IMG/VR virus record: IMGVR_UViG_3300042480_000415 | Span: 1 to 31,207 of that record | Source: a virus | Lineage: Duplodnaviria > Caudoviricetes | Direction: 5' to 3' (one strand) | DNA length: 31,207 nucleotides | Part shown: positions 6,446-31,207 of the stretch, one piece after another | Numbering within the stretch: the stretch's first letter is position 1 | Layout of the letters: each line of letters opens with the position of its first letter | Notes under the pieces: model-generated | Seen by the model: the letters and a program-made list of their open reading frames with translations, nothing else | Databases searched by the model: none | Told to the model about the DNA's origin: nothing | Position numbers and translations under genes: made by a program

Positions 6446-6897
6446 TGACCAAAACCGTCTGCCGCAAGGCCACCTACCGCGACATCACCGCGATCGTGGA
6501 CATCGCGGTGGAATCCGTCATGCGCGACCCGCTGCCGGTCACTGTGGACCGCGAAGCGATGCGCGAGATGGCCATGCAGTGCTTGAACCCGGCGCACTTC
6601 ATGTGGGTGGCCGAGGACGAGGCGGGCAACGTGGTGGCTTCGGTGGCGGCGATGACGCAGAAGTCGTTCTGGTATCGAGGCCTGCAGTGCTCGGTGCTGC
6701 TGTACTACACACGCCAGCCTGGCGCTGGCGCGGCCCTGCTGCGCGAGTTCGCCAGGTGGATGAAGTCGCGATCGGGCATCAAGGTGGCGGTGCTCGAGCT
6801 TGAGCCCAACGTCGACCTGCGGCTGACGCGCTTTCTCAAGCGCCTGGGATTCGGTCGCAAGTCGATCAACATGACGTATGTGAGGAGTTCACTGTGA
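6445..6897 (+). CDS. GNAT-fold acetyltransferase-like virion-module protein
   Basis: TGATG coupling to upstream gene; RKATYRDITAI start, WVAEDEAGNVVA strand, GAGAALLREF, FLKRLGF motifs of GNAT folds. Confidence 0.7.
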   Translation: MTKTVCRKATYRDITAIVDIAVESVMRDPLPVTVDREAMREMAMQCLNPAHFMWVAEDEAGNVVASVAAMTQKSFWYRGLQCSVLLYYTRQPGAGAALLREFARWMKSRSGIKVAVLELEPNVDLRLTRFLKRLGFGRKSINMTYVRSSL

Positions 6898-9365: not shown

Positions 9366-12300
9366 ATGCGATTCGTACCCATCTCCGAGTTCGAGAAGGA
9401 AGAGCAGAAGGCCTTCCGATTCATCCCGATTGAGGAGGTGGAGTCCGCCAGTACGACTGACTACTCCGACATGGCCACGGCCATGCAGGGGACGCCTACC
9501 GGCGGGCCGCTGATTCGCAGCGTGCTGGACCAGCCCGGCCCCGTGCCGAAGACGCCGGGTTACGACCCGATGCTGAATCAGGGCTATGTGGCCGAAGTCC
9601 GCCGGGACATCATCGGCAAGGCCGCGCCTGAAGACCGCATGGGCCTGCTGACCACGCTGGCCGAGAACCGCACCGATGTGCTGGGCCGTGCCGCTCGCCA
9701 GATCCTGGCCGAGGTGCAGGCAGAGAACAAGCGCATCAACCTCGATCAAGAAGGGCGCGCTCAGCGGCTGCTGGACGCACCGCGTGGCCCCGGCAACCTG
9801 CCGCCCCCGCGCCCGGGTGCAGGCGCAGCGCCGCCACCCGTGCCGGTGCCCGATGTGTCCCCTGGCATCAGCGATGTCATGGACGGGCGCACCGCCAAGC
9901 AGATCGCCGAGCGGCGCATGCTGGCGCAGGGCGTTCGCGTGGCCGATGAGGGCATGCGCGTAGACGAGATCAGTGGCGCTACCAGCCGAATGGCGGAAGC
10001 CGAAGGGCGCCGCAAGTTTGCCGAAGAGAATCCGCTGCTGGGCTCCATTGCCGCCGGCTCCGCGGGCTTGATCAGCGGCGTGATTAACATTCCCTCGGTC
10101 GCCGCAGACGCCTTCAACAAGACCGCCATCAACCCAGTGCTTCGCGCATTGGGAATGCAGGATCTTCCGCCCGTGTCTACGGCATTTGGCACTGAGTACC
10201 TGGCCAAGTCTGCCAGCGACTTCATGCCAAAAGTTGGCAAGCAAGAGATGGACGAGGCCATTGCGCGCCAAGAGTTTGCGCCCTGGCTGATGTCGAAGCT
10301 CGCCGCCAACTCGCCGCAGATCGCGCAGTCTCTGCTGGCTGCGTTTGTGCCCCCGCTGCGCGCAGTGCTGCTGCCAGGCATGGCAGGTACGGCGGCTGGC
10401 CAGAGCTTTGCCCAAGGAGACGACTCTCGCGTGGCGCTCGCCAAGGGTGCGGTGGAGTATGTATCCGAGAAGCTGCCGCTTGGCGTGTTTGACAAGGTCG
10501 GAGACGTGCTCAAGGGGATGTCTCCTGCCAAGGCCAACACGGTGTTGGCGGTGGCTGGCCAGCGCGCTCTGCAGGCCGGCGGTGCAATCACTGCCAACGG
10601 GCTGACCAACGCGATTGAGGAAGTGGCCGCACAGTTCGGTGGCAACGTGCTCGACAAGTACTTCCAAGGCAAGGACATTGAGCTGACCAAGGGCCTGGCC
10701 GAAGCCGGAGTTGTTGGCGGCGTGACGGGCAAGCTGATGAGCGCGCCTCAGGTTGCCGCCGCGGCGACCGGCTACTACGAGCCTGAGCGCCAGATTGCGC
10801 GGGAGATCGACTCGGTTGGGCGTGCGTTTGAGAACCTCGGGCCAGAGGCATCTCGAGCTATCAGCATTGACATGCTGCGCACGGAAGCCGGCACCTCCAA
10901 CCTGATCTCCCCCGCCGCGACCGTCAAGAACTTCACCCCGCCCGACTCGCCGACCAAGCAGGCTGGCCTGGTGGACATCGAGGTGCCGCTGCCAAACGCG
11001 GCTCCTATCCTGCCCGAGATCAACCCGTCGACCGAAGAGCAGTTCGGTCTGGATAAGCTGCGCATGGGAGGCGCGAATGTCGGCACAACAGGCGTACCTG
11101 GAGGACTGGCTGGAGCAGGGGGTGAGGCAGGGGGCGGTCTCATTGACGGAAGCATGGGAGCTGCAGGACCTGGCGATGCAGGTGCCCCCGGGCTCGGAGG
11201 CAGAACTGCCCCAATCCCTGGAGTCAATGATCGACAGGCTGTTCCTCCTGGAGGTGCGCCCGGCCAACAACTTGCCGGCGTAGCTGTAGGCGGTGAACCT
11301 CTGACGTGGACTGGGCGCGCAAAGACTGGCTATGCGAACGAGCAGGACGCCGAGCAGGCGATGGCCACTGCCAGCACGGTCATCGACACCAGGCAGACTC
11401 ACGACTGGCGCGTCGAGCCCATAGGCAATGGGCGCTTTCAGATTGTCGGATACCAAAAGGAGACCAACCTTGGCACGCAAACCCCTCAAGCCCAGCAAGG
11501 CCAAACGCAAGGAGCAACACCAGCAGGCCAAATGGCAGGTGCCGCACAAGGCGGCGCAGGTGGCATCCCAGCAGCAACCGGCACGCCGGTTGAACTGTCT
11601 GATACTGAACGTGCCGGACTGAAGCTTGCGCCGACGGCGCCGCTGCGAGAGCTGAGCTCGCTCAACAAGCAGCTCGATCAGCAGATCGGTGTCACGTTCT
11701 CGCCGGTCAAGTCGACCGACCTGAACGACTCGCAGCGCCTGGCCAGTGCGGTGGCGCGCCTGATGGGCAAGACCCTGACGGTAGTCCACCAGGAGACCGG
11801 TGCAGGCGCGCTGCCCAACGGCATGATCAACACCGTCGGGGGCAAGCACCTGTTTGTCGCTGACGATGCGGACGATGCCCCGCTGGCCATCACTGTGCAT
11901 GAGGCCTACCACGGCCTGCCGGAGGCTCAGCGCAAGAGCCTGAATGCTGCGCTGCTGGATCTGTTCCGCCAGGACCGCAAGGACAAGTTCCTCGACGAGT
12001 TCAGCTACACGCCGGACAAGTTCGAGGAGGAAGCCCCGGCCATGATGGTGCAGGCCATCAGCAAGCGCGAGGACTTCTGGCAGGAGCTGCGCACGAAGAT
12101 GGGCAACAAGGAGTTCGGCGAGGTGGCCAAGACCATCATCGCCAAGCTCGGCGACATCATCACCGGCGCGAAGAAGCAGTACGGCGAAGACTTTGTCAAC
12201 AAGTACATCTCCGACGTCGCGAAGGCTCGCGACCTGTTGACGACCGCCTACGCCGACGCGATGAAGGCGCAGGGCCTGCAGCCCGATGTGCAGCTCGAAG

Positions 12301-15300
12301 GCATGGCCATGGCCTCCGAGCGTTCGCGCATCGGCATGGACTTCAAGGACGTCGTCAAGCGCACGCCCGAGCTCCAGGCTGCGGCCGAGAGGGTCAAGGC
12401 CGGCGAGATGACGGCGGCCGAGTACGACAAGCTCGTCGCTGAGTACAAGCCTGTCGAGCCCTACACCTCGGTGCCTGCGCCGGCCGCCGACGCAGACATC
12501 CGGGCAGCGCTGACCAGCGACAAAGTCGACCGTATCGGTGTGCCGTCGAAGACTCTCAAGGCCGGCGACCCCGTGGGCCTGCGCCTGGACATCCCGGCCT
12601 ACTCCAACCACGGCACCTGGGTGGTGTCAGTGCATGAGCAGCAGGCGGGCTACAACGCGGGCAAGTCGATCGGATACGAGCCGGTCGCCGCTGCCACCAA
12701 CGTCACGTTCGGTGTCGTTGAGAAGGCCGCGCTGAACATCGCGGGCGGCAAGCCCAAGGCGACGATCGCCGTCATCAAGGGCGGATGGAAGCCCACGACG
12801 CCGGCCGAGGCAAAGCTCAAGGCCGACCAGGCGCTGAAGTCCAAGGACTGGGTGCAGGTCGGCATGGACCCCGAGCGGCACAGCTACTTCTACGACCGCT
12901 CCAGCATGGAGCCGGTGACGGCCGCCGACGAGGTCATCCAGATCGGCCCCCTGGTGCTGGCCAAGAACCCGACCTACGGGCAGAAGTCCGAGTTCATGTT
13001 CAGCGGCCGGGCTCGCGAGCCGATCAAGGTCAGCGACTACAACCCGAAGGCCGACAACTTCAACAAGCAGCGAGACATGACCTCGCTGCTGGCTGAAGCG
13101 GTGCCGGCAGAGACCATCGCCGCGGCCGACGGGTTCGTCGAGAAGTACTTCAAGGAGCGGCAGCCAGTCTCCGTTTCGCCGCAGGATCGCCTGCGCGCAG
13201 AGATCTTGCTGAAGCCCAGGATGGAAGCGGCCGAGCAGGCCAAGCCGGAGTACGACCAGAAAATCCTGAACATCGCAGCGCGCACCGGCGCCACCGGCCA
13301 GATGCTGGCGCCCATCAAGGGGCTCAAGCGTGCGGCCGAGAAGCTGGCGCTCGAGGAGAACTACCAGGTCGACAACATCAAGGACCTGCTGCGTTCAACC
13401 ATCGTGGTCGACAGCTACGCCGACGCGCCCGCGATCATCGACGAGATCCGCAAGGAGTTCGACGTGGTCCGCATCAAGGACCGCGCCGGCGTAGGCGTGG
13501 CTGGCGACAAGGTGGAGGCGTCAGACCGTCAGAAGTTCGGCGGCTATGCCGACGTGCTGATCAACATCAGGATGCCCAACGGCACGGTGGGTGAGATCCA
13601 GATCAATACGCCCGCCATGCTGGCCGCCAAGGATGGCCAGGGCCACAAGCTGTACGAGGCCGCCCGTGAGCAGCCTGAGGGTTCACCGCTGCGCGGCGAG
13701 ATCTACGACGCGATGCGTGGTCTTTACGACGCAGCCTTCTCGGCGGCGAACTTGCGGCAGCCCTCGGCGCAGGACAGGAACGCAGCCTCCGACATCGGGG
13801 CGCCGCGTGCCGGCAGCGAGCTGACTGCAACGAGCTCGTCGCCAGAGTCGGCGAGCTTGAAGACCTTGCCGTCAGGAAAGACGACGAACTCGTCGCCGGA
13901 GAACGAGGCAACGAACTCGCAGCCGGGCGGGAAGGAAGAGGGGACTTTCATAGGATCTCCTGACGAGTCGAGTATATCACAACCCTTATACACAAAGCCG
14001 CCTCGGCGGGGCGCCGAAAGGATCGGGAGCTTTGATGTTCGCACCATGAAGGACGGCTCGATTGTCGTCTACGGTGATTCGCAAAACATCAGATCGCAGA
14101 TCCCAGAAGACGTCAAGGGTCGCGTCACCAAGGACGGCTACCTCTTTACCAACGCAGCCGCGCCTCGTGTAAAGGCCGCGCTCGAGGGGCGCAAGACCGC
14201 CTACAGCCGCGGCGGTGCAGTGCTCGACAAGCTGCCGATGAAGGACGGCAAGTACCTGGGCGCGCCCGAGAAGTACAACACCCCTGGAAAGATCGTCGCG
14301 CTGCGCAAGCAACTGCGCATGCTCACGCTGGAGGGGGAGCGCGGCCGCTACTGGTACGAGAACAGCAGCCTGGCGATCTTGCGCATGACTGGCGGCAACG
14401 TGCAGGAGGCGCGCAAGTTCGTGGCCCTGCTGGCCATCTACAGCCCGCAGGCGCGTGTCGACAGCAACTCGACGTTTGCTCTGCGAGCCTGGGCGCAGTA
14501 CAAGGCTGGCCAGCCGATCAGCGTGAAGACCGGAGTGCAGGACAAGAAGGCGACCCAGGCCATGGCCGACGTCGACGCCTTCTGGTCTGGCGAGAAGACA
14601 GGCAACTTCTTCTTCAATCTGTTGCGCGAGATCGACACCAGCACTGCTGGCAAGCAGGGCGCGACGATCGACATGTGGATGATGCGTGCGGCCGAGTACG
14701 CCAACGACGCGCCCACTGCCACGCAGTACGCCTTCATGGAGAACGAGACCAACCGCATTGCGCAGGAAATGGGCTGGGAGCCGCAGCAAGTGCAGGCCGC
14801 CATCTGGGTCGCGATGAAGGCCCGCATGGAGAACAAGGGTGTCAAGCAGAGGACCGAGGCCACCAGCGAGAAGAAGGGCTGGATCAAGTTCGAGCGCGAT
14901 GCGAAGGGCAAGAAGGTCCGCGTGATCATCGACGCACAGAAGCACCGCGACAACTGGCTCAAGCATGCGATGGAGCATGTGCCAACGAAGGAAGACACCG
15001 AGCAGGCCAAGTTCGACTTCGCCGATGGAGTCGGGCGCCACATCGGCCAGCTTTCGTTCGAGGCTCGGCCAGGCCGCAGCACGGGCGTTCTGGATGGGAT
15101 CCACACCGCACCGTATGCCCAGCAGGTGGAGTTCCAGCAGGCCGTGCAGCGTGCGTTCTACGACGAGAACGGCACCGACATGCTGGCTGCACAGCTCGGC
15201 CTGCTGACGGAGCCCAGCGACATCATGCGCCCTGGCGTGTGGCAGGGCGAGGTGTCACCCAGCACGCAGAAGCGCGTGGCAATGGCGCCGGCTGGTGGCG

Positions 15301-18300
15301 ATGCTGGCAAGACCAACGTCGACCCGGCGCAGGCCGAACTGCTCAACGTCTATGCGTCTGTGGCTGGCCTGGTGGCCAGGCAGGAAGGGGTGGGCTGGCA
15401 CCGTCCCTTCTACGCCGGCACGAAGGGGCAGTCCAACGGCCTAGACATCGACATCGGCCGGGCGCTGAACCCAACCGAGACGAAGGACCTCGAGGCGGCG
15501 ATCGGCAAGTGGATGGATGAGAAGAAACACGCCAACTGGCAGAACCAGTTTGCGCTGATCAGCTCGCCCACTGGCATAAGAGTTGTGAATTTCGGTATCA
15601 TCACAAACGCAGTACTCCATTCCGACATCGTGAAGGTCGCGGAAGGTGTGCTGCCAGATGGATCTGTGCGCGTGTTCGCCTCAAGTGGCGACATGCCAAC
15701 TAACGACTGGGAGGCAAACCCCAATGGGCAAACTTACGTACAAAGGATTGGTGCCGCGGGACGATCCGATGTTCTCGACTGGGCCAGAAGTGTTCTCGCG
15801 CCTCGGGTCCAGCGAGTCTTCGAGGACTTCGCCGAAAAGTACCAGTGGGGAGACCCCGGCCGAATCCAGTTCAGCAACCGAGGCGGATCTGATGCAGCCG
15901 GCGGTGGACGCGATAGAGGAGTGGGGCCGCAAGACGTTCAAGCGGTAACCCCTTCCTACGGCACCCCTCGAGAGGGTGCCGCTTCCGCGGTCGCCTACCA
16001 CTACAGCACCCAGCCCCGCACGACCCTCGACAGCGTGATGTATGGCACCGGCCTGCGCGGTGCCGAGATGGCGCGCCTGCAGGGCGCAGATCCGCGCCTG
16101 AAGCAGCGCGTCTACTTCTACATCGATCGCGGCACTGGCATCAATCCTGAGGCCGGCGTGGGCGGCCAGGCCCACCGCGTCAATCTGCAGAACCTGTATG
16201 ACGTCGACGAGGACGCGCTGCGTCTGCGCCGCGACAACGAGGCCTTCAACGACTTCGAGTCTGCGGTCATCGACGCCGGCTTCGACGGCTACATGGTGCG
16301 CGACGCCGGGCCGTCAGGCAACGCGGTGCTGCTGGGTCGGCACGCCGTGCCCGTCGAGCAGCTCGGCGCACGCGGCCGCATGACAGGCGAGCCCGTCGCA
16401 CCGGCCCGCGAGCGAGTGCTGAGCGACGCTGAGAAGATCTCGGCCAACAAGATGCTGCCGGCCGGGCAGGTGTCCGGCAAGCGCTGGGCGGAGCTCATCT
16501 CTCGCGGCATGCCGGAGGTCTACGAGCGCCTGGCTGGCAGCCCGGTGTGGCAGTCCGACAAGGTCATGTACCGCGGCGATCTGGCTCGCGAGCTTCGCGC
16601 TCAGCCGATGTTCAGCAACCGCCAACTGCCGACGGTCTCACCGCAGAGCGCGCTGGACGCGGACATCAAGGTTGCGTCGGAGAGCCTGCAGCGCTACATC
16701 CGGGCTGCGGAGCAGGGGCGCCAGTTGCCCAAGCTCACGATCGGCCGCCTGCCCCATGTGCTCAACATGCTGGGCGCACGCACGCAGGATTTCGACATCG
16801 CCACCAGCATTGTCAAGAAGGTGTTTGTCAGGACCAAAGCAGAAAAAGGACACGCGGACGAGCTGCCCGACATCACGCCCAAGCAGCTCATCGAGGGCAT
16901 CTACCGCCCGGCCATGGTGCTGAAGTCGAAGGACGGCAACCCTCGCGAGTTCGAGCTGGTGCTGCCCATCACCAACGACAAGGGCGCGGTGATCGTCCCG
17001 ATCAAGGTGTCGGTGGACAAGACCGATCCGACCGGCGCGGTGATGTCGATCTACGCCAAGGGCGTGTCGATCTCCGGCGGCAAGCCGAACGAGCAGGTGC
17101 TGATGAAACGCATCAACGACGGCAACCTGCTGTACCTGGACCCCGGCCTGGCCAAGCAGGCGCTGACTGGTCGCAAGGCTGGAGATCCTAAGGCTGACGT
17201 CAAGCTCAATGGCAACTTCGTGTCTTGGCCTGGGGTGTGGCCCAAGCTGGCGGAGATGATCTCTGCGCGCACGGTCAAGACCGACATCAACCTAATGGGC
17301 TGGATCGGCAAATACTACACGCCGAGCTCGTCGCCGCAGGGCTGGGAGGATGCGCCCGCATTCAGCCGTCGTGCTCAGACCGAGACGCCCGAATTCAAGC
17401 GCTGGTTCGGCAACAGCAAGGTGCTTGAGAAGCCAGGAAGGACTATTGATCAGGCCCGCGCCTTGGAGATTGCAAGTCTCAAGCGCGAGATGGATTCCTT
17501 GCCGTATGCCGAAAACGAGCTGAAGGACTATGGGGAGCGGTTCAAGGAGGACCCCGATCGCGCCGGCTGGTGGGGGCCCAAGATCGAGAAGCAAAAGTCT
17601 TTGATTGCCTCATTGAAAATAGAGAACGAGAAGGCGCGCGAAAGGATCGCCGAGCTTGAGTCGGGTGGAACGCCAACCAAGTTCCCCTTCAGCGATGGGT
17701 CGAAGAAGCCAAAGGTGATGTACCACGCCACCGACAACCCGCTCGAGGGTGGCGTGTTCAGAATCGGAGTTGGCGGAGCGATCTATGTGTCACCCGACCC
17801 CGATGCGGCCGAGGACATTGCCAAGCCCAAGATCTTCGGCAAGCGCTTCCCTGGTGTGCCGTTCTCGCCAGATCTGATGGGGGGACCTGACCTCTTCCAG
17901 GGGCTCAACGTCATCCCCGTCTACGTCAAGGCAGAGAACCCATTCGACTACGAAATCAAGGAGCACAGGCAGGCTCTTGCCGATCACCTCAAGAGCATTG
18001 GCTTTAAGCCGCCCAGTGCCGTGCAATTGGCCGAGGACGCACCAGACGAGGCGTCTGGTGCAAGCGACATCCTCGAGATGATCCACGCCGGCGACTACCG
18101 CGTGATCGAGAGCCCAGAGGCGATTGAGTGGATCAAGAAGAACAACTTCGACGGGTTCTACGTTCAGGAGCTTCAGGAGGACGAAGAGATAAAGAACCTC
18201 GGCGTCTTCTCATCGAACCAGATTAAGTCCGCCATCGGCAACATCGGTACGTTCGATCCGGCCAACCCGGACATCCGCTTCAGCCAGCGCGCCCGCGCTG

Positions 18301-18485
18301 AGGACAAGGAAGTGGCCAGCCTGTTCCGCGATCTGCAAGATGCCCGCGGCCTTGGGCGCGTGCGTGCGCTCGAGCGGGTTGACGCGCACCCGATGGCTGA
18401 GACAATCCGCCGCATCGACCAAGAGTTCATGAACATCCTGGAGCGGCTTGACGACGCCGGCCTGGTGAAGATCAACTGCAAGTGA
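9366..18485 (+). CDS. Large polyvalent (multi-effector) internal virion protein, 3039 aa
   Basis: Single 9.1-kb ORF with several recognisable catalytic motifs (listed as domain features); architecture matches described phage polyvalent proteins. Confidence 0.9.
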   Translation: MRFVPISEFEKEEQKAFRFIPIEEVESASTTDYSDMATAMQGTPTGGPLIRSVLDQPGPVPKTPGYDPMLNQGYVAEVRRDIIGKAAPEDRMGLLTTLAENRTDVLGRAARQILAEVQAENKRINLDQEGRAQRLLDAPRGPGNLPPPRPGAGAAPPPVPVPDVSPGISDVMDGRTAKQIAERRMLAQGVRVADEGMRVDEISGATSRMAEAEGRRKFAEENPLLGSIAAGSAGLISGVINIPSVAADAFNKTAINPVLRALGMQDLPPVSTAFGTEYLAKSASDFMPKVGKQEMDEAIARQEFAPWLMSKLAANSPQIAQSLLAAFVPPLRAVLLPGMAGTAAGQSFAQGDDSRVALAKGAVEYVSEKLPLGVFDKVGDVLKGMSPAKANTVLAVAGQRALQAGGAITANGLTNAIEEVAAQFGGNVLDKYFQGKDIELTKGLAEAGVVGGVTGKLMSAPQVAAAATGYYEPERQIAREIDSVGRAFENLGPEASRAISIDMLRTEAGTSNLISPAATVKNFTPPDSPTKQAGLVDIEVPLPNAAPILPEINPSTEEQFGLDKLRMGGANVGTTGVPGGLAGAGGEAGGGLIDGSMGAAGPGDAGAPGLGGRTAPIPGVNDRQAVPPGGAPGQQLAGVAVGGEPLTWTGRAKTGYANEQDAEQAMATASTVIDTRQTHDWRVEPIGNGRFQIVGYQKETNLGTQTPQAQQGQTQGATPAGQMAGAAQGGAGGIPAATGTPVELSDTERAGLKLAPTAPLRELSSLNKQLDQQIGVTFSPVKSTDLNDSQRLASAVARLMGKTLTVVHQETGAGALPNGMINTVGGKHLFVADDADDAPLAITVHEAYHGLPEAQRKSLNAALLDLFRQDRKDKFLDEFSYTPDKFEEEAPAMMVQAISKREDFWQELRTKMGNKEFGEVAKTIIAKLGDIITGAKKQYGEDFVNKYISDVAKARDLLTTAYADAMKAQGLQPDVQLEGMAMASERSRIGMDFKDVVKRTPELQAAAERVKAGEMTAAEYDKLVAEYKPVEPYTSVPAPAADADIRAALTSDKVDRIGVPSKTLKAGDPVGLRLDIPAYSNHGTWVVSVHEQQAGYNAGKSIGYEPVAAATNVTFGVVEKAALNIAGGKPKATIAVIKGGWKPTTPAEAKLKADQALKSKDWVQVGMDPERHSYFYDRSSMEPVTAADEVIQIGPLVLAKNPTYGQKSEFMFSGRAREPIKVSDYNPKADNFNKQRDMTSLLAEAVPAETIAAADGFVEKYFKERQPVSVSPQDRLRAEILLKPRMEAAEQAKPEYDQKILNIAARTGATGQMLAPIKGLKRAAEKLALEENYQVDNIKDLLRSTIVVDSYADAPAIIDEIRKEFDVVRIKDRAGVGVAGDKVEASDRQKFGGYADVLINIRMPNGTVGEIQINTPAMLAAKDGQGHKLYEAAREQPEGSPLRGEIYDAMRGLYDAAFSAANLRQPSAQDRNAASDIGAPRAGSELTATSSSPESASLKTLPSGKTTNSSPENEATNSQPGGKEEGTFIGSPDESSISQPLYTKPPRRGAERIGSFDVRTMKDGSIVVYGDSQNIRSQIPEDVKGRVTKDGYLFTNAAAPRVKAALEGRKTAYSRGGAVLDKLPMKDGKYLGAPEKYNTPGKIVALRKQLRMLTLEGERGRYWYENSSLAILRMTGGNVQEARKFVALLAIYSPQARVDSNSTFALRAWAQYKAGQPISVKTGVQDKKATQAMADVDAFWSGEKTGNFFFNLLREIDTSTAGKQGATIDMWMMRAAEYANDAPTATQYAFMENETNRIAQEMGWEPQQVQAAIWVAMKARMENKGVKQRTEATSEKKGWIKFERDAKGKKVRVIIDAQKHRDNWLKHAMEHVPTKEDTEQAKFDFADGVGRHIGQLSFEARPGRSTGVLDGIHTAPYAQQVEFQQAVQRAFYDENGTDMLAAQLGLLTEPSDIMRPGVWQGEVSPSTQKRVAMAPAGGDAGKTNVDPAQAELLNVYASVAGLVARQEGVGWHRPFYAGTKGQSNGLDIDIGRALNPTETKDLEAAIGKWMDEKKHANWQNQFALISSPTGIRVVNFGIITNAVLHSDIVKVAEGVLPDGSVRVFASSGDMPTNDWEANPNGQTYVQRIGAAGRSDVLDWARSVLAPRVQRVFEDFAEKYQWGDPGRIQFSNRGGSDAAGGGRDRGVGPQDVQAVTPSYGTPREGAASAVAYHYSTQPRTTLDSVMYGTGLRGAEMARLQGADPRLKQRVYFYIDRGTGINPEAGVGGQAHRVNLQNLYDVDEDALRLRRDNEAFNDFESAVIDAGFDGYMVRDAGPSGNAVLLGRHAVPVEQLGARGRMTGEPVAPARERVLSDAEKISANKMLPAGQVSGKRWAELISRGMPEVYERLAGSPVWQSDKVMYRGDLARELRAQPMFSNRQLPTVSPQSALDADIKVASESLQRYIRAAEQGRQLPKLTIGRLPHVLNMLGARTQDFDIATSIVKKVFVRTKAEKGHADELPDITPKQLIEGIYRPAMVLKSKDGNPREFELVLPITNDKGAVIVPIKVSVDKTDPTGAVMSIYAKGVSISGGKPNEQVLMKRINDGNLLYLDPGLAKQALTGRKAGDPKADVKLNGNFVSWPGVWPKLAEMISARTVKTDINLMGWIGKYYTPSSSPQGWEDAPAFSRRAQTETPEFKRWFGNSKVLEKPGRTIDQARALEIASLKREMDSLPYAENELKDYGERFKEDPDRAGWWGPKIEKQKSLIASLKIENEKARERIAELESGGTPTKFPFSDGSKKPKVMYHATDNPLEGGVFRIGVGGAIYVSPDPDAAEDIAKPKIFGKRFPGVPFSPDLMGGPDLFQGLNVIPVYVKAENPFDYEIKEHRQALADHLKSIGFKPPSAVQLAEDAPDEASGASDILEMIHAGDYRVIESPEAIEWIKKNNFDGFYVQELQEDEEIKNLGVFSSNQIKSAIGNIGTFDPANPDIRFSQRARAEDKEVASLFRDLQDARGLGRVRALERVDAHPMAETIRRIDQEFMNILERLDDAGLVKINCK
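11077..11283 (+). CDS. Nested +1-frame small acidic protein (68 aa) within polyvalent ORF
   Basis: GGAGG at 11067-11071, ATG 11077. Codons CTG/GAG/GAC/CAG are genome-typical, while the host frame here is a GGA/GCA-coded Gly-rich linker. Confidence 0.6.
   Translation: MSAQQAYLEDWLEQGVRQGAVSLTEAWELQDLAMQVPPGSEAELPQSLESMIDRLFLLEVRPANNLPA
11470..11622 (+). CDS. Possible nested +1-frame basic peptide (50 aa, TTG start; MARKPLKPSKAKRK...)
   Basis: AAGGAG at 11457-11462, 7 nt before TTG; host frame is a low-complexity Q/G/T linker. Confidence 0.35.
   Translation: MARKPLKPSKAKRKEQHQQAKWQVPHKAAQVASQQQPARRLNCLILNVPD
11640..12290 (+). other. Zincin-like metallopeptidase (MPTase-type) domain
   Basis: LPNGMINT...LFVADD...AITVHEAYH (11898-11912) and downstream FEEEAPA; boundaries approximate. 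Confidence 0.7.
13230..13740 (+). other. RelA/SpoT-like nucleotidyltransferase domain
   Basis: IKGLKRAAEK / IKDLLRSTIVV / GGYADVLINI / GEIQINT / GHKLYE, ordered like the synthetase motifs but diverged; boundaries approximate. Confidence 0.8.
13724..13951 (-). CDS. Nested antisense small protein (75 aa), candidate immunity/antitoxin for the RelA/SpoT-like domain
   Basis: Minus strand AGGAGA-TCCT-ATG; MKVPSSFPPGCEFVASFSGDEFVVFPDGKVFKL... globular-looking; sense frame here is an S/T-rich linker; own promoter-like element. Function is inference. Confidence 0.6.
   Translation of the reverse strand: MKVPSSFPPGCEFVASFSGDEFVVFPDGKVFKLADSGDELVAVSSLPARGAPMSEAAFLSCAEGCRKFAAEKAAS
13971..13979 (-). promoter_or_regulatory. 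Extended -10 element (TGATATACT) upstream of the nested antisense gene
   Basis: TGn-TATACT in an AT-rich island ~20 nt upstream of ATG 13951; the same 9-mer occurs in the 29405-29432 promoter. Confidence 0.55.
14340..14830 (+). other. HhH-GPD / Ogg-like DNA glycosylase-type domain
   Basis: YWYE...LLAIYSPQ...SGEKTGNFFFNL...ATIDMWMMR...PQQVQAAIW; Lys (14595) and Asp (14670) sit as in the GxK..F..N...IDxH motif of Ogg-type enzymes. Confidence 0.55.
15724..15948 (+). CDS. Possible nested +1-frame protein (74 aa; MGKLTYKGLVPRDDPMFSTGPEVF...)
   Basis: GGAGG at 15710-15714; host-frame codons become atypical here (GTA CAA AGG ATT, GGA CGA); AT-rich patch at 15575-15620 upstream. Confidence 0.4.
   Translation: MGKLTYKGLVPRDDPMFSTGPEVFSRLGSSESSRTSPKSTSGETPAESSSATEADLMQPAVDAIEEWGRKTFKR
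15990..16350 (+). other. ADP-ribosyltransferase-like domain 1
   Basis: AYHYS...YGTG...RVYFY...NLYD...AGFDGY pattern parallels the other ART-like domains in the window. Confidence 0.55.
16730..17140 (+). other. MuF-C / PBECR-like (predicted RNase-fold) domain
   Basis: IGRLPHVLNMLG...KGH...KQLIEGIYRPAMVLKS...VIVPIKV...VMSIYAK. Confidence 0.6.
17376..18285 (+). other. ART-PolyVal-like ADP-ribosyltransferase domain 2 (with coiled-coil insertion)
   Basis: ETPEFKRWFGNSKV...PKVMYHAT...IYVSPD...VIPVYVKAENPFD...FDGFYV...VFSSNQIKSAIGNIGTFDPANPDIRFS. Confidence 0.8.
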
Positions 18486-18494
18486 GGTATCACA

Positions 18495-18986
18495 ATGCCT
18501 GTTTCCAACCTTCTCGACAAGCCCACCGAGGACATGCTGAACAAGGCTGTCCACGCCGAGCTCTACGCCTCGCACTTGTACCGCCATGTGTCCAACCAGA
18601 TGCAGCGCGTCGGGTTCTTCGGCACGCAGAAGTTCTTCGCTGGCGAGAGCGCTGACGAGCTGAAGCACTACCAGCTCATCGCCGACTACATGAACGACCG
18701 CGGCACCAGCGCGAAGGTGCCGGCGCTCGAGGCCTGCACTGAGGTGGTCACCGACATCGTCGACGCCATTGAGCTGGGCTACGAGACCGAGCTGCAGCTC
18801 ATGCGCGACTACGAGAAGTGGTATCGCGAGTGCAAGTGCGTGACGACCCAGCAGTTCATGCTGCAGTTCCTCGAGACCCAGCGCAAGAGCGTGGGCGAGT
18901 ACGGCGACCTGATGTCACGCCTGGGCCTGGTAAGCGGCGACAAGGCGGGCATGCTGATGATGGACCAGGAGCTGGGCAATGGCTGA
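18495..18986 (+). CDS. Ferritin-like protein (non-haem ferritin family)
   Basis: GAGGT RBS; AELYASHLY, FF..ESADELKH...YMNDRG, YETEL, TQQFMLQFLETQ; 163 aa, ferritin length and ferroxidase ligand spacing. Confidence 0.85.
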   Translation: MPVSNLLDKPTEDMLNKAVHAELYASHLYRHVSNQMQRVGFFGTQKFFAGESADELKHYQLIADYMNDRGTSAKVPALEACTEVVTDIVDAIELGYETELQLMRDYEKWYRECKCVTTQQFMLQFLETQRKSVGEYGDLMSRLGLVSGDKAGMLMMDQELGNG

Positions 18987-21900
18987 TTGCACCTACACGT
19001 TCAAGACTGCGGAGGGCGAGGTCACCATCAAGGGGATGGCCGAGATGAAGGCCTTCCTCGCCTTGAACGGTGTGGGTGCTATTGATGGCGCCAAGGCGCC
19101 TATGTTCAGCCAGCGCGCTTTTCACGGTACGCCGCACCGTGGCATCAACAAGTTCAGCACCGACAAGATCGGCACCGGCGAGGGAGCCCAGGCCTACGGC
19201 TGGGGGCTGTACTTCGCCGACAAGCGAGAGATCGCGGAGCACTACCGCAAGGTTCTGCAGGGCGGCCCGCTTGGGTTGAAAGTGCAAGGGGCTGCCACCC
19301 GGGCGCTGGGCGTTGAGTACGACGAAGCCGCATCTTCGTCGCAGTTCATTGATGGGGTGCGCAATGTCGCCGGCAACGGCGAGGATGCGGTGCGCGAAGC
19401 CATCATCAAGACCGCAGACAGGATGTCGCGATCGCAGTGGCCCGGCGACAAGCGTTTGGCTGAGCGTGTGCGGGCGCTTGCGGACAACACCGCTGTCGTG
19501 AAGGCCGTCAACAAAGAAGCCGCTGGCCAACTCTACGAGGTTGAAATCCCTGAGGACAGCGAGATGCTGCTGTGGGACAAGCCACTGAGCGAGCAGTCGG
19601 AGGCGGTGCGGGCGGCCGTTGACAAGCTATTTGAAAACGGGGCACTGGACGACGGCTCCAAAAAGCTCATTGAGTCGCAAGGCATGCGCCAAGATTTGAA
19701 GGGCAAGACCCTTTACGAACTGCTCGCGACATCAGACAACTTGGCCATCGACGGCACGGGCCGCGCCGCCAGCCTGGCGCTGGCCGAAGCGGGCATCAAG
19801 GGTATCAAGTATCTTGACGGCACCAGTCGCGACGCAGGCGGTGGCAGCTACAACTATGTGGTGTTCAGCGGCGACGATGTGGCAATTCAGCAAGCCTTTT
19901 ACAGCAAGCGCGCCAAGCAGTCCTGGTTCCTCGGCCGCGACGACCTGGGCAACTTCACCTTCGGCGCCGGCGCGAAGGCCTACCGCTACGCGGCGGACAT
20001 GGCCAACCTGGTGTTGGACAAGATGGCGCTCAAGCCCATCAGCACCGACCTGTCGCGGGCCATGCGGAAGATGAAGATGGAGATCTCCAAGGCTCAGGAG
20101 CTGACGGTGGACGTGGCCACCAAGCTGCAGGAGCTGCCGCAGCAAGAGCGCGAGATGATCAGCGACGTCATCGAAGGCGAGCTCAAGCGTGGCGCCAAGC
20201 CGCCCAAGCGGGTGCTCGAGCTGGCGGCCAGCATGCAGGCCATCATGTCCGAGCAGACCGCCGAGCTGGTGCGCCTGGGCATGCTGACAAAGGACGCGGC
20301 CGGCCGGTGGGACGGCAAGTACCTGCCGCGCTTCTACGAGTCCAAGCTGAAGAGCGAGGCCAACGGGTGGGTCAAGGCGGCCAAGGCGTTGCTCGGCCGC
20401 AAGAAGACCATGCAGGGCATCGGCGGCTCCAGCCTGAAGGGTCGGGGTCTGTTTCAGACCATACCCGTTGAAGACCTCGAGGCCTGGCTTGCCGAGGGAT
20501 GGGAGGAACGCGACCCCGACTTTGACCCCGACACCGACACTGAGATCACGGTCTGGCGCGACTACACCCGCCAGGAGCGCGACGACATGGGCGAGATTCG
20601 GGACTCCATGTTCCGGTTCGTCATGGGCTACAGCAAGAGCCAGCGTGACATCTCGCTGGGCCGGCTGTACGAGAACATCGCCAGCACCGTAGCCAGCAAG
20701 AAGGAGAAGCCTGGTTTCGTGCAGGTGCCGCGCACCAACATCGAGGACACCTATGCCAAGCGGTACGGCAAGCTTGCCGGCATGTGGGTTCCCCAAGAGG
20801 TGCTGGACCACCTGACCGCTTTCGATGACTCGATGCAGAGCGAGGTGCTGAAGATGTACCTCAAGGGCATGAGCATGTGGAAGGAGGGCAAGACCGTGCT
20901 GAACCCGGTCAGCCACGCCAACAACATCATGTCCAACGTGACCATGGCGCACTTCGCTGGCGTTTCCTACTGGGACGCTCACAAGTATGTGGCCACCACG
21001 CGCGACATCATGAAGAACGCGCCGATGCTGCAGGAGGCGAAGGACGCCGGCCTGTGGCTGGGCACCATGACCCAGGCCGAGATGACCGACCTCCTGCCTG
21101 ACCAGCTCAAGGTGCTGGCCGCCAAGACAGAGAGCAAGTCGGGCCAGGCGGTGGAAGGCGTGTGGAACGCGCTGTCGTTCTGGCTGCGCAAGCCTATGGG
21201 CAAGGCCTACGAGGCCGAGGACCTGTTCTTCCGCTACCTGATCTACCGCGATGCGCGCACGAAGGGGCTGACCCCAGATGAGTCCGTCGACTACGCCCAG
21301 AAGTTCATCTTCACCTACGACGACCTGCCGAAGAACGCCAGGCGCATCCGCGACTTCGCCCTGCCGTTCTTCGCCTACACCTACAAGGCGATCCCGGCGA
21401 TGGCCGAGACGGCGCTGACACACCCATGGCGGTATGCCGCCCCGGCAGCAGCCCTGTACACGATCAACGCGGCCATGTACGCGATCGCTGCGGGGGCGGG
21501 TGAGGACGAGGAGTGGTGGGAGCTGATCAAGCGGCGCTTCACTGACGAGGACTTCGCGGCCCAGGCCAAGGCCCTGGAGGCGGACGAGCGCAAGAACCTT
21601 CCCGAGTGGATGAAGGGCGCCAGCCTGACGCTGGGGACCTACAAGTCCATCCGCCTCGGGATGGACGAGGCGACAAACCTGCCCGTGTTCCTGGACGTCA
21701 GCCGGATCTTCCCGGGCGGCGACCTGTTCGACGCGGTCAACAACGCGGGCGGCGTGCCGCTGATCGCACCGCTCACTCCGAACAACCCGATCCTGACAAC
21801 GGCCTACGCCATGCTGGCCAACAAGGACACGTTCCGAGGCAAGGACATTGTGACCCCGGCCGACACCGACGCGGAGGCCGCAGCCAAGCGCGCCGACTGG

Positions 21901-25870: not shown

Positions 25871-26133
25871 GCGGCCCCCGCCTTGACCAGGAACATCGGC
25901 GTGCGCGGCCCGACGTAGGCGCCTGCGGTGTTGAAGCTGAACCACTCCTCAGCCTCTTCGCGGTCCATGCCGCCCAGCATCAGGCTGCTGATCACCTCCT
26001 CTTGGTCGTACACCACGACAGGCTCCATGCCGCAGCGGTGCGCCACGCCGACGATGCAGCGATCAAAGGACTCTGGCGGATCTAGGAACAACAGTTCTTC
26101 GCCGTACTCTTCGGCCAGTGATTCCCGATTCAT
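25867..26133 (-). CDS. Conserved phage hypothetical protein
   Basis: FDRCIVGV...VVYD...EEAEEWFSFNTAGAYVGPRTP; ATGA overlaps. Confidence 0.8.
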   Translation of the reverse strand: MNRESLAEEYGEELLFLDPPESFDRCIVGVAHRCGMEPVVVYDQEEVISSLMLGGMDREEAEEWFSFNTAGAYVGPRTPMFLVKAGAA

Positions 26134-27185
26134 GCGACGACCCTCGCCGTGGTGATGCCGTGCGCTCGCAGCGCGGCCGTCATGGCCGCCGCATCGGCGA
26201 GCATCTCCTTCTGCTTGCAGGCCTTGATCTCCAGCGAGCTCAGCGCGCCGTCGCCCTGGCCGTTGGCGAACGTGCCGTGCTCGTGCTCGTACACGACATC
26301 ACCATTGACATAGTCTTTCTGCGTCGCGAAGCGCTCGAGCAGGATGGGGATGTAGCGGTGCGTGCTGCAACGGTGCGACTCGCGCTGGGCGATCAGGCCC
26401 ACCTCGCCGAACTCGCGGCAGTTCCACTTGCCGTCCTCGCCTTCGACCACGGGCGTGCTGTGCGCGCAGGTCCGGCAGTTGACGTCGGGTGCCTCCTCGC
26501 CGTGGCACAGGCTGTGGAAGTCGCACATCTTGCAGACGTACCAGCTCGGGTCGTTTGAGCACCGAAGCGGCGGTTCGGCCGCAGTGATCACGCGCTCGGC
26601 GCGGGCCATGATCTTGGCGAACTCGACCTCGTCGAAGTGGACCCATTCAGCGTAGAGCTCGCTGGTGTCCTTGTTCTCGGCGATGTACATGGCGCGGGCC
26701 ATGCCGGTCATGCCCATGTAGGTTTGCATCTGAGCCCAGTGCTGCGGCTTGGACTTCTGCACGCCATCCTTCAGGGCCGCAAACGACTTCGCGTTGTGCG
26801 TCTTGAACTCGACGACGGCCCAGGCCTTGGGCGCCTCGGGGAAGCCTCGTGCGGCGCCGTCCATGCTGCCTCCGAAGTGACCGCCGACAGCGGACACGCG
26901 CCACTGCTTACCGTCGGGCGCGGTCTCGTGGACCTCGACTCCGATGCGGCGCAGCTCGGCCACGATGCGGGGCTCGAAGTCCTGGCCCGCCTTGAACAGG
27001 CGCAGCATCCGGCCCGAATGCTTCTTCGATCCGGCCCAGCGGAAGGTCAGCCACAGGTAGCGCTCGCAGGCGTGGCCGATCAGGGATGCGCCCAGGTGCG
27101 GGCGGTGGCCGTCGCCTGCGTCGGACTCGTAGGCCCGGTAGATCGTCGCGACGGTCGTGTGTATGGGTTCGGGCACTGTGGCCAT
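26130..27185 (-). CDS. PD-(D/E)XK exonuclease (YqaJ/Cas4-like with Cys cluster)
   Basis: HLGASLIGHACER...GSMDG...VEFKT...QMQTYM...CKMCDFHSLC; AAGGAG RBS. Confidence 0.88.
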   Translation of the reverse strand: MATVPEPIHTTVATIYRAYESDAGDGHRPHLGASLIGHACERYLWLTFRWAGSKKHSGRMLRLFKAGQDFEPRIVAELRRIGVEVHETAPDGKQWRVSAVGGHFGGSMDGAARGFPEAPKAWAVVEFKTHNAKSFAALKDGVQKSKPQHWAQMQTYMGMTGMARAMYIAENKDTSELYAEWVHFDEVEFAKIMARAERVITAAEPPLRCSNDPSWYVCKMCDFHSLCHGEEAPDVNCRTCAHSTPVVEGEDGKWNCREFGEVGLIAQRESHRCSTHRYIPILLERFATQKDYVNGDVVYEHEHGTFANGQGDGALSSLEIKACKQKEMLADAAAMTAALRAHGITTARVVA

Positions 27186-27207
27186 GTGGGAACACTCCTT
27201 GTGTCGT

Positions 27208-27289
27208 TGCAGGGGTGAGGGGCCTGTTACTGGCGCGCGGGGCGGCCCTCCCCGGCCGGCCCCTCACCGCTGCAGGCCCTTGCGGGCCT
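27208..27289 (-). other. Structured intergenic element (GCAA-tetraloop hairpin plus 17-bp stem)
   Basis: Arms 27208-27224 / 27258-27274 pair at 16 of 17 positions; AGGCCC-GCAA-GGGCCT (minus strand) at 27274-27289. Confidence 0.6.
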
Positions 27290-27296
27290 ACACGGG

Positions 27297-27497
27297 TCAT
27301 GGCGTGGACGGGTTCTCGTCGGCGCCTGCCGTCTCGATCGCGACGCCGTCCTTCATGGCGGCCACCAGGGTCTTCTGGTTGGCCACCGAGACGGTGAAGT
27401 GCTTCTCTGCGACGTGTCGCAGGGCGCCGACCTTGGTGCCGGCCTCCACGAGGTGGAAGCCCTGCGGGCCCTCGACGGCGTAGATACGGGTGCTCAT
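27297..27497 (-). CDS. Small hypothetical protein
   Basis: AAGGAG RBS, ATGA overlap; MSTRIYAV...ALRHVA. Confidence 0.75.
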   Translation of the reverse strand: MSTRIYAVEGPQGFHLVEAGTKVGALRHVAEKHFTVSVANQKTLVAAMKDGVAIETAGADENPSTP

Positions 27498-27688
27498 TGC
27501 TGCGGTTCTCCTTCTTCAGCGGGTTGGGGTTGAGACTCCAGGGTTTGGAGCTGGTACTCGGCCTGGCCGCGGATCTCCGCGATCAGTCCAGCACTCTGGT
27601 CGTATGGCAGCTTGCCGAGGGCGGCGAGCACGAGCTCGACGCCGGCAGGCACCATCTTGATCGACAGGATGGGCGGGATCTTGCTCAT
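27494..27688 (-). CDS. Small hypothetical protein (LAALGKLPY...LIAEIRGQA)
   Basis: Start trimmed to ATG 27688, 2 nt after the upstream stop; fits operon packing. Confidence 0.7.
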   Translation of the reverse strand: MSKIPPILSIKMVPAGVELVLAALGKLPYDQSAGLIAEIRGQAEYQLQTLESQPQPAEEGEPQQ

Positions 27689-27690
27689 GA

Positions 27691-28200
27691 TCAGGCCGCC
27701 CGCTTCTGCCACGGGGGCACGGCTGCGCCAGCCGCGGGTGCGTTGGCTGCAGGCGCAGCGGGGCGGGACGGGGCGGCAGCAGCCATGGGCGCTGCACCAC
27801 CGGCCGCAGGCTTGAAGCCGCTGACCTCGTTCTGGTCCTCGTACTGGCCGGTCTCGTCCTTGCGGACCTTGACCTTGATCTGCATCGGCTTGTTGTGCAG
27901 CTCGACCGTGTCGTTGAAGCGGGCCAGGCCGATGGATTCGCAGAGCTCGCGCAGTTGCTGCTGAGCGATGCTCTCGGCCTGCTGGTTGGTGTGCCGCACG
28001 TTCAGGCGGGCCCACACCTTGCGGCCGCGGTAGCCGTCCTGCAGCACCTCGATGGTGAGCTTCAGGGCCTTGCCGTTGCCAGACTTCAGGGGCACGATCT
28101 CCGACTCGGTGACCTGTGCCGTGTACCAGCCTGCGGGCAGCAGCTCGTAGCTGTTCTCGCGCTTCTCAACGCTGTCGGTGTTGAACTCAAATTGCGCCAT
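27691..28200 (-). CDS. DUF669 single-stranded DNA-binding-like protein
   Basis: AAAGGA RBS; YELLPAGWYTAQV...YRGRKVWARLN...QNEVSGFK, A/P-rich tail ending PPWQKRAA; follows the Sak4-like gene. Confidence 0.82.
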   Translation of the reverse strand: MAQFEFNTDSVEKRENSYELLPAGWYTAQVTESEIVPLKSGNGKALKLTIEVLQDGYRGRKVWARLNVRHTNQQAESIAQQQLRELCESIGLARFNDTVELHNKPMQIKVKVRKDETGQYEDQNEVSGFKPAAGGAAPMAAAAPSRPAAPAANAPAAGAAVPPWQKRAA

Positions 28201-28220
28201 GATGGGTGTCCTTTCAGGAG

Positions 28221-28913
28221 TTACTTGGCGGTGGTGGAAATGACCTTGGCAGCGATTGCCGACAGGTCGGGGGACTCGAACATCTCGAGGCTGCCGGAGC
28301 GGTCCTTGGCCTCGTAGTTGTAGTCGCGGCTGGTCTGCAGCCAGCGGGTCGGGTTGCCGTCCGCATCCTTCTCGATGCGCATGGCGAACACGAAGTCGAA
28401 GAAGTACCCGACGCCCTGCTTGAGCATGTTGCCGGGCATGGCGGGGTAGTACAGCATCGCGCCCGACTGCTCGTCCTTGGCGCGCTCCTGCTTGCAGGAG
28501 AAGTACACGTTGCGGCCGGGCAGGTCGCGGAAGGCGCGGATCAGATCCGTCATCTTCTCGGCCAGCGCACCGTAGGCCTGGCGCGGATCCTTCGCGACCT
28601 TCTTCTCGTGGTTCAAGACCACCTCGGCGATCTCCGAGATGGAGTCCAGGCAGACCCACTTGAAGGCCTGGCCCTGCTCGGTGTTGGTCACGAAGTCGTA
28701 GGCCTCGTAGAGCTGGTCCAGGGTCTTGACCTCGATGACCGGGATGTCAACGCCACGCAGTGACAGCAGGCCAGATTCTGCGCTGATGATCACGGTGGGC
28801 TCGCCAGTGGTGGCGCAGAGCGAAGTCTTGCCGGCGCCCGCAGGGCCGTGGACCAGGAACTTCAGGCCGTTGAGCGCGGCGCTGTCTTTGGTGGAAGTGA
28901 GGGTGATTGCCAT
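28221..28913 (-). CDS. AAA_24 / Sak4-like ATPase (phage recombination protein)
   Basis: HGPAGAGKT Walker A, ISAESGLLS, VCLDSISE Walker B, AKDRSG. Confidence 0.88.
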   Translation of the reverse strand: MAITLTSTKDSAALNGLKFLVHGPAGAGKTSLCATTGEPTVIISAESGLLSLRGVDIPVIEVKTLDQLYEAYDFVTNTEQGQAFKWVCLDSISEIAEVVLNHEKKVAKDPRQAYGALAEKMTDLIRAFRDLPGRNVYFSCKQERAKDEQSGAMLYYPAMPGNMLKQGVGYFFDFVFAMRIEKDADGNPTRWLQTSRDYNYEAKDRSGSLEMFESPDLSAIAAKVISTTAK

Positions 28914-30716: not shown

Positions 30717-31172
30717 TTATTGCTCGGGTATTCCAGAGAGCCGCCGGATCGCCCGCTGATACCTGGGTTCCAGAACCTGGCGCCGCTCTTCTCTGAGCTG
30801 CGACAGGCGATCGGGATGCAGGTTGTGCAGCACGTCCGCGAGCTTGATGATCTTCGCCTCGACACCCGCGGCAATGACCCGGTCCAGGTAGGCGCCGTAG
30901 TCTTCGCCCTCGCGCTTGGTGAGCGCTTCCACGAGCTGCAGTGAGCGCTCCGACACGCCGGCCGCGCGTAGCGTGTTGAGGCTGTGGAAGGTGTCCTCCA
31001 CGACGTCGTGCAGCACCGCTGCGCACTGCGCGTCGATGTCGTTTGGTAGCTGCTTGGCCACCGTGTGCATCACGGTCAGGGGGTGCAGGATGTAGGCCAT
31101 GCCGGCCTTGTCCTTCTGTCCGTTGTGCGCGTCGGCGGCGATGCCGATCGCGTAGAAAAGGTTGTCGTGCAT
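30717..31172 (-). CDS. HD-domain small alarmone hydrolase-like protein (SpoT/Mesh1-type HD domain)
   Basis: AHNGQKDKAGMAYILHP, AVLHDVVEDT, IKLADVLHNL; ATG 31172 preferred over GTG 31181 by RBS spacing. Confidence 0.85.
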   Translation of the reverse strand: MHDNLFYAIGIAADAHNGQKDKAGMAYILHPLTVMHTVAKQLPNDIDAQCAAVLHDVVEDTFHSLNTLRAAGVSERSLQLVEALTKREGEDYGAYLDRVIAAGVEAKIIKLADVLHNLHPDRLSQLREERRQVLEPRYQRAIRRLSGIPEQ

Positions 31173-31207
31173 GGTACTCACCCCTCGTACACGGCCAGGC
31201 GGCCGGG

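Follow-up and report, generated by a model that had tools for sequence, protein, structure and literature searches.

The window analysed here is the whole of the linear virus record IMGVR_UViG_3300042480_000415 (31,207 bases, 55% complete), which belongs to a tailed phage and encodes a giant protein split over two open reading frames (ORFs), ORF A and ORF C, separated by a ferritin gene and punctuated by copies of a short motif of the form [FY]-S-x-R (Table 1). Five Pfam families were matched on ORF A, namely DUF7178 (6e-14), ART-PolyVal (9e-10), MuF_C (1e-4), L5_gp82 (3e-3), and RelA_SpoT (4e-3), with two of the five lying above cut-offs. Across the two ORFs, two ART-PolyVal domains together with gp82-like, RelA/SpoT, DUF7178, and MuF_C domains are set between copies of the motif. 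Because unrelated Pfam domains alternate with the motif in this way, ORF A and ORF C look like phage polyvalent proteins. Homologous giants carry LPD1, LPD37, LPD38, and InPase domains, and one of them (P0189, residues 1320-1460) contains an anti-CBASS Acb1 domain as a cargo module.

Table 1. Positions of the split giant protein, its joints and modules, and the recombination genes in the window
Feature	Position	Strand	Basis or remark
ORF A, polyvalent protein of 3,039 amino acids, first half of the split giant	9366-18485	+	Pfam
Predicted zincin-like domain	11595-12290	+	HEAYH at residues 845-849 (nucleotides 11898-11912); downstream Glu at about residue 889
Joint 1, M-A-S-E-R, immediately 3' of the zincin	12309-12323	+	Breakpoint peak
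L5 gp82-like module	12324-12998	+	PF25735 6e-5, under curated cut-off; phrog_586
Joint 2, F-S-G-R	12999-13010	+	Identity with L001 and L002 ends at 13004
RelA/SpoT-like module	13011-13740	+	PF04607 1e-4, under curated cut-off
Large module: small domain, DUF7178, and unannotated domain; contains A-Y-S-R-G at 14199-14213	14000-15869	+	Pfam, block replacement
Joint 3, F-S-N-R	15870-15881	+	Breakpoints, DNA comparison
Unannotated module	15882-16610	+	No match in Pfam, PHROG, or NCBIfam
Joint 4, F-S-N-R	16611-16622	+	Breakpoints, profile
MuF_C-like module	16623-17360	+	PF18819 5e-6, 27.1 bits compared with a cut-off of 27.6
Joint 5, F-S-R-R (17361-17372), and 918-bp ART-PolyVal module	17361-18278	+	PF18760 2e-11
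Joint 6, F-S-Q-R	18279-18290	+	Breakpoints, DNA comparison
Conserved ORF A tail, ending I-N-C-K-stop, with invariant Cys	18291-18485	+	Alignment, 24 sequences
Ferritin gene between the two ORFs	18495-18986	+	PF00210 9e-19; NF007638
ORF C, 1,106 amino acids	18979-22299	+	Pfam, alignment
Cys-bearing head of ORF C	18979-19104	+	Alignment
Joint 7, F-S-Q-R	19105-19116	+	14-bp identity with joint 6
ART-PolyVal-like module of ORF C	19117-19899	+	Pfam
Joint 8, Y-S-K-R	19900-19911	+	Breakpoint peak
Conserved 799-amino-acid C-terminal domain of ORF C (after joint 8)		+	Weak LPD38
Cas4/RecE-like exonuclease	26130-27185	-	PHROG match (PHROGs 1990, 6015, and 124 cover the exonuclease, SSB, and Sak4 set, 26130-28913)
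SSB	27691-28152	-	PHROG match
Sak4-like annealing protein	28221-28913	-	PHROG match

Occurrence and confinement of the motif

In the original prediction, nine strings of this kind had been listed as punctuation at nearly every domain boundary of one effector polyprotein, and all nine were found in frame where they had been placed. The strict motif occurs seven times, against 0.76 expected from composition, a count reached in 0 of 20,000 shuffles, with five copies in ORF A (0.54 expected) and two in ORF C (0.23 expected). The proposed coding by TTCAGCnnnCG was likewise borne out, with six copies on the plus strand, all at motif sites, and one on the minus strand. The single polyprotein was not: the sites are distributed over two ORFs, with the ferritin gene between them.

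A profile learned at the breakpoints described below, hydrophobic-[M/R/Q/A]-[F/A/R]-S-[N/K/R/Q]-R, scores at eight sites in the window. These include M-A-S-E-R, which had been proposed as a variant and which scores 14.3 and coincides with a breakpoint peak. A-Y-S-R-G is not among them; in this string the Arg stands one place early, the profile score is below 5, and 46 of 46 homologue alignments span the site, so that it is ruled out as a swap joint and is instead a conserved internal feature. Of the 46 homologues, 45 retain the form A-Y-S-R-[GA], which resembles the "S-R-G" dialect (that is, the lineage-specific form of the motif) of distant lineages and may be a fossil joint. The placement of the motif at nearly every boundary thus holds for eight true joints and fails at two breakpoint peaks of ORF A, near residues 1540 (~13990) and 2330, where no motif is found. 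At the former, the motif is present in 14 of the 21 distinct homologous contexts listed; the window itself reads P-L-Y-T-K-P-P-R-R there (~13740-14000), after a long low-complexity linker, and this motifless peak is possibly a decayed joint.

Beyond the window, 239 strict motifs were counted in 95 homologues found via the zincin region, compared with 51 expected. Enrichment over the rest of the proteome, which had been proposed as a check, was found when the window was taken together with four complete relatives: the profile matched 22 times in 17,583 amino acids of giant proteins and twice in 58,055 amino acids of other, mechanically called ORFs; only the latter figure is independent, because the profile was trained on the giants of this family. 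In G001 and G005, relatives in which the terminase, portal, and major head protein were identified, neither these three proteins nor the pre-capsid ORF gave a profile match. A de novo search for the most-repeated pattern in each protein was swamped by Ala-rich linkers.

Module shuffling at the motif

Breakpoints were mapped as internal alignment ends against 204 giant proteins, for ORF A from residue 740 onward. Ends within 5 amino acids of a motif made up 130 of 334 in ORF A and 62 of 94 in ORF C, compared with expected shares of 3.4% and 2.1%, respectively. When 127 representatives were compared all against all, 1,027 of 8,284 ends fell at [FY]SxR versus 76 expected (13.5-fold), whereas four control motifs were at 0.3-0.8 times expectation, and an alignment end was present at 151 of 209 motifs versus 10% of random places; these counts are not independent, given the relatedness of the proteins. 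Some peaks lack the motif: S-x-[RK] was found near 229 of the 505 peaks in these representatives.

At the DNA level, relatives differ at the motif by the loss, gain, replacement, and relocation of modules across 6-7 shared bp, in agreement with the earlier suggestion of microhomology junctions. Six relatives (L002, L003, L004, L005, L008, and L012) lack the 918-bp module at 17361-18278 in ORF A, its absence running from motif to motif and the join lying inside a shared TTCAGCC (7-bp microhomology). In L008, this module, 98% identical, sits at joint 7, the first one in ORF C. The skip was also found in metagenome contigs, as a joint in three of eight runs and as a loose end in two more, with module-bearing contigs alongside, and the module is polymorphic in lake metagenomes. 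At M-A-S-E-R, L002 has one insert, L004 and L005 have a different one, and L008 has another module. Identity with L001 and L002 breaks off at 13004, directly after TTCAGC; the block 13990-15865 is replaced as one unit in L001 and likewise in contigs from runs X13 and X15; and L004 and L005 change to a different C-terminal region at the Y-S-K-R joint. There, an unrelated region (L004:12867-15710 and L005:14244-17086) stands in place of the whole 799-amino-acid domain, showing that the conserved carrier domain is itself swappable. By rough clustering, the downstream partner families number 25 for the ART end, 16 for the zincin, and 9 for the gp82-like domain.

Thus, from the breakpoint enrichment together with a 918-bp module that is absent, moved, and polymorphic at the motif, module shuffling at the motif is shown, and the motif constitutes a genuine code for junctions, found throughout this family of phage polyvalent proteins. 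The tag codons (mostly TTCAGC) would supply the shared bases for crossover; with shared tag codons at the crossover, every recombinant would be in frame and would have the tag rebuilt at its new joint. As a guess, the Cas4/RecE-like exonuclease, SSB, and Sak4 encoded by the phage may be the shuffling machinery, the alternative being host repair. Sak4 anneals oligonucleotides diverged by up to 20%, and the available text of the study concerned contains no statement on Sak4 annealing at 6-7 bp (PMC5928155). No tyrosine or serine recombinase was found among the 14 window proteins scanned, from a record that is 55% complete.

The tag as a probable protein signal and its possible reader

The strict motif is encoded by 73 different 12-mers in 115 contexts, with third-base usage near background (CGC for the motif Arg in 63 of 115, compared with 55.5%). 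A site-specific recombination array of the integron or shufflon type is disfavored, since in place of a conserved DNA site independent of codons these 73 12-mers and both serine codon boxes were found. Among 160 profile sites, Ser is encoded by TCN at 27 and Lys stands at the Arg position at 29, changes that mostly require two base substitutions; Ser/Ala and Arg/Lys exchanges preserve the chemistry and break the DNA identity. Residue classes are preserved in 107-128 of 140 pairs of orthologous joints, and the hydrophobic residue two places upstream of the motif is kept in 121 of them, in a set that is pseudo-replicated, with one joint class dominant, and that excludes a profile match in the final helix of the C-terminal domain, seen in 29 of 89 subjects (220 pairs with it).

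The dialect was found to be constant within single genes while the codons vary, with both serine codon boxes used within one gene. In L055, F-S-E-D occurs four times in one gene, with the serine codons TCG, AGC, AGT, and AGT; x-A-R-G occurs four times in L093, and x-S-R-Q-R is found at joints in L075 and L079. Arranged by zincin cluster, the dialects are S-N-R in the cluster of the window and [SA]-K-[KR]-Q, S-R-A, and [AS]-R-G in others. On these patterns, together with the DNA-level ones given below, the motif can be read as carrying both signals: it would be a tag in the protein, and crossover within the codons of each copy would spread it.

It is proposed that the tag, hydrophobic-x-[Phe/Tyr/Ala]-Ser-x-Arg, marks joints for the in-frame exchange of whole enzyme modules and is likely retained at the joints as a protein signal that would be cut by the predicted HEAYH zincin, releasing the modules. 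The giants would be packed in the virion and then injected, the zincin would be an active protease, and cutting would take place at the tag or next to it, with ORF A processed in cis. Because ORF C has motifs but no HExxH, it would need cleavage in trans, and the cis-acting enzyme first suggested would be an incomplete account. Cleavage at the motif by this zincin is judged, by a narrow balance, to be probable, with indirect support from the protein-like substitution pattern, the intact HExxH, and the lineage dialects; the junction and cleavage readings are compatible, and both are most likely correct. A fuller proposal is advanced tentatively, namely that of a plug-and-play effector system in a widespread freshwater family, in which a tag of 4-6 residues would be both a co-evolving zincin cut site and a codon-based crossover point between slots, genes, and phages, with lineage dialects and with a split into Cys-tail, ferritin, and Cys-head whose products would re-join.

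With respect to the enzyme, all 108 homologous domains examined retain HExxH, and H102, E103, H106, and E146 are invariant in 12 divergent zincin sequences; the zincin of L093 has the form HExxxH. In the structural model (predicted local distance difference test score, pLDDT, 82), three strands precede the HExxH helix. The zincin sequence had no match in PDB, Pfam, or NCBIfam, and the Atlas gave clusters without names, one of them with LPD23 in 18% of its members. An HExxH or HExxxH domain is present in 104 of 108 full-length unsplit giants, which have 232 strict motifs compared with 88 expected; the four giants without a zincin have 2 compared with 3.5 expected. P0202, P0161, P0206, and P0138, which have the same C-terminal domain without a joint-type zincin and show no motif excess, are natural negative controls.

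Several observations weigh against the combination of tag-based crossover and zincin cleavage. At the joints themselves, residue identity at the motif is not above that of the flanks (0.70-0.84 over the 140 orthologous pairs), AGY encodes Ser at 100 of 109 F-S sites versus 43% in the background, and synonymous change is 0.14 at the motif Arg versus 0.44 at other Arg. Together with crossovers within 6-7 shared bases in a phage that encodes Sak4, SSB, and an exonuclease, these values favor a pure recombination scar, in which joints would descend from one another via TTCAGC-like microhomology, selection would act on shuffling and frame, and the peptide would be inert. Such a scar is nevertheless unlikely, given the many 12-mers with third bases near background, the use of both serine codon boxes within one gene, the exchanges that keep the chemistry and break the DNA identity, and the retention of the upstream hydrophobic residue.

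The remaining adverse points concern the zincin as the reader of the tag. The linker holding M-A-S-E-R is modelled as disordered, fold searches with the zincin model gave no significant match to a protease (best Foldseek E 0.37; best VIA Z 7.2, to helical hairpins only), and the strict motif is lacking from 16 of the 104 giants that have a zincin. The virion RNA polymerase (vRNAP) of N4 has an HExxH domain and yet is packaged unprocessed (PMC5512222). Across 84 units, the partial rho of the dialect is 0.29 with the C-terminal domain versus 0.11 with the zincin, and dialect sharing is 0.58 in 11 close pairs with different zincin clades versus 0.59 in 45 same-clade pairs. In favor of the zincin, in FastTree trees the coarse dialect class, picked after the data had been seen, changes six times on the zincin tree and nine times on the C-terminal tree, compared with ~28 when shuffled (76 of the 84 units). 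Overall, the tests of dialect against zincin are mixed, and the link is confounded by lineage.

A protein signal with another reader would account for a dialect that follows the C-terminal domain no less closely than it follows the zincin, the candidates being a protease of the host, a chaperone or an unfolding step while the protein is packed or ejected, and a site on the conserved C-terminal carrier to which the tag would bind; the protein-like substitution pattern leaves that reader unnamed. The close relatives L021 (1310-12385) and L022 (1877-12415), whose C-terminal domains are nearly identical, have different zincin clades in the same slot and an unchanged dialect. Such constancy after a zincin swap would be expected under cleavage too, because only enzymes of like specificity would survive swaps. 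This explanation seems improbable, however, because the motif follows closely after the zincin in most cases listed, the four zincin-less giants have no motif excess, and P0168 combines a zincin clade with the F-S-K-K-Q dialect, both of them those of a distant lineage.

Cutting by a prohead maturation protease in head assembly, as in T4-type phages, has a general precedent in head proteases that act at short degenerate sites, but it is very unlikely here, given the lack of profile matches in the head genes of G001 and G005 and of a recognizable protease ORF in the interval from portal to capsid of G001. Chance or assembly artefact is negligible: all of the sequences are metagenomic assemblies, in which short repeats can misjoin contigs, but the shuffles argue against chance, and the 918-bp skip is seen in six contigs from IMG/VR and, as a joint, in contigs of three metagenome runs, with repeats of 6-7 bp far below assembly word length.

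Genomic setting, related systems, and significance

The tail of ORF A is a 58-residue domain closing in I-N-C-[KD], and ORF C opens with M-x-x-C-x-Y-x-F, with the tail Cys and the head Cys both invariant in 24 aligned loci. Tail, ferritin, and head were found together in 53 of 101 loci and none of them in 44, the other 4 being cut by a contig edge, and neither tail nor head was ever internal in 312 giants. In the window phage, the tail-ferritin-head block (18291-19104) lies between joints 6 and 7. A ferritin cassette that is always motif-flanked was rejected, the motif being found after the head in 39 of 46 cases and before the tail in 9 of 36. A search of the Atlas with the ORF A tail gave no match. 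The tail and head may bind each other, holding the split chain together, or these ends may bind metal.

Upstream of the giants in the window lie tail fibre and endolysin genes, and downstream, on the opposite strand, replication and recombination genes. A 961-amino-acid Gln/Ala-rich repeat protein with a Pro-rich tail (3560-6445; 685-981 amino acids in relatives), for which no family match was found, is likely another ejection protein, and a GNAT acetyltransferase gene (6415-6897) stands amid the putative ejection genes. On the minus strand, a stand-alone HD phosphohydrolase (30717-31181; phrog_990), which we take to resemble a small alarmone hydrolase, occurs in the same phage whose giant has a RelA/SpoT-like module. 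Near-identical DNA was found in lake-water metagenomes (24 runs among the matches listed, five of them marked as possible sources), and no RNA run was found among the matches listed for the window DNA. No cultured relative was found: the C-terminal domain gave only four weak records of uncultured type at 23%, and the zincin and ART module gave no match in this search. The source names of more distant homologues point to Betaproteobacteria.

Zincin-like peptidases have been predicted to release the domains of polyvalent proteins (Iyer et al., 2017; PMC5512222). The phage-type proteins described there likewise fuse unrelated enzymes (ART-PolyVal, RelA/SpoT, MuF_C, and LPD38) with an HExxH zincin-like domain. 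Cassette recombination is suggested in that paper for one Verrucomicrobium locus only, and its main text, as far as available, mentions no cleavage or junction motif, shuffling, or ferritin, whereas here the joints are named, are mapped as swap points, and have dialects. The N4 vRNAP and the crAss-like gp65-gp67 are also giant virion proteins with an HExxH or zincin-like domain, for which a role in processing has been proposed (PMC13434306; 10.1101/2020.03.07.982082). Unlike in these systems, no RNA polymerase was found here; conversely, the N4 vRNAP is packaged uncut, and the portions available of these sources give no repeated joint motif. In a podovirus, phi24B gp47, a virion protein of 2,811 amino acids with LPD38 and MuF-C, was found by proteomics and is a proposed ejection protein (10.64898/2026.04.10.717836); in contrast to the cleavage proposed here, its peptidase was assigned by the authors, in the part of that report available, to peptidoglycan, and the window domains have no detectable match to such records.

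No publication describing an F-S-x-R junction motif was found in a literature search, short motifs being hard to search for in the texts available. Polymorphic toxin families have junction motifs, and their cassettes likewise exchange domains at a conserved junction, while in RNA-virus polyproteins an embedded protease likewise frees domains at repeated sites. In the toxin cassettes, however, one C-terminal tip is exchangeable, whereas in the window giants this applies to every internal slot, and, unlike in either of these systems, one short tag appears to be both the crossover point and the processing site. The analogy to polymorphic toxins and RNA-virus polyproteins has been drawn for polyvalent proteins (PMC5512222).

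Self-processing of polyvalent proteins has been predicted since 2017 without a site, and the motif supplies exact candidate sites; with its natural specificity variants and natural negatives, it makes the question of cleavage directly testable. Tag-based module exchange explains how the giants diversify. Furthermore, the tag can be used to divide hundreds of uncultured giants, along their natural boundaries, into candidate anti-defence domains, as exemplified by the homologue that carries Acb1.

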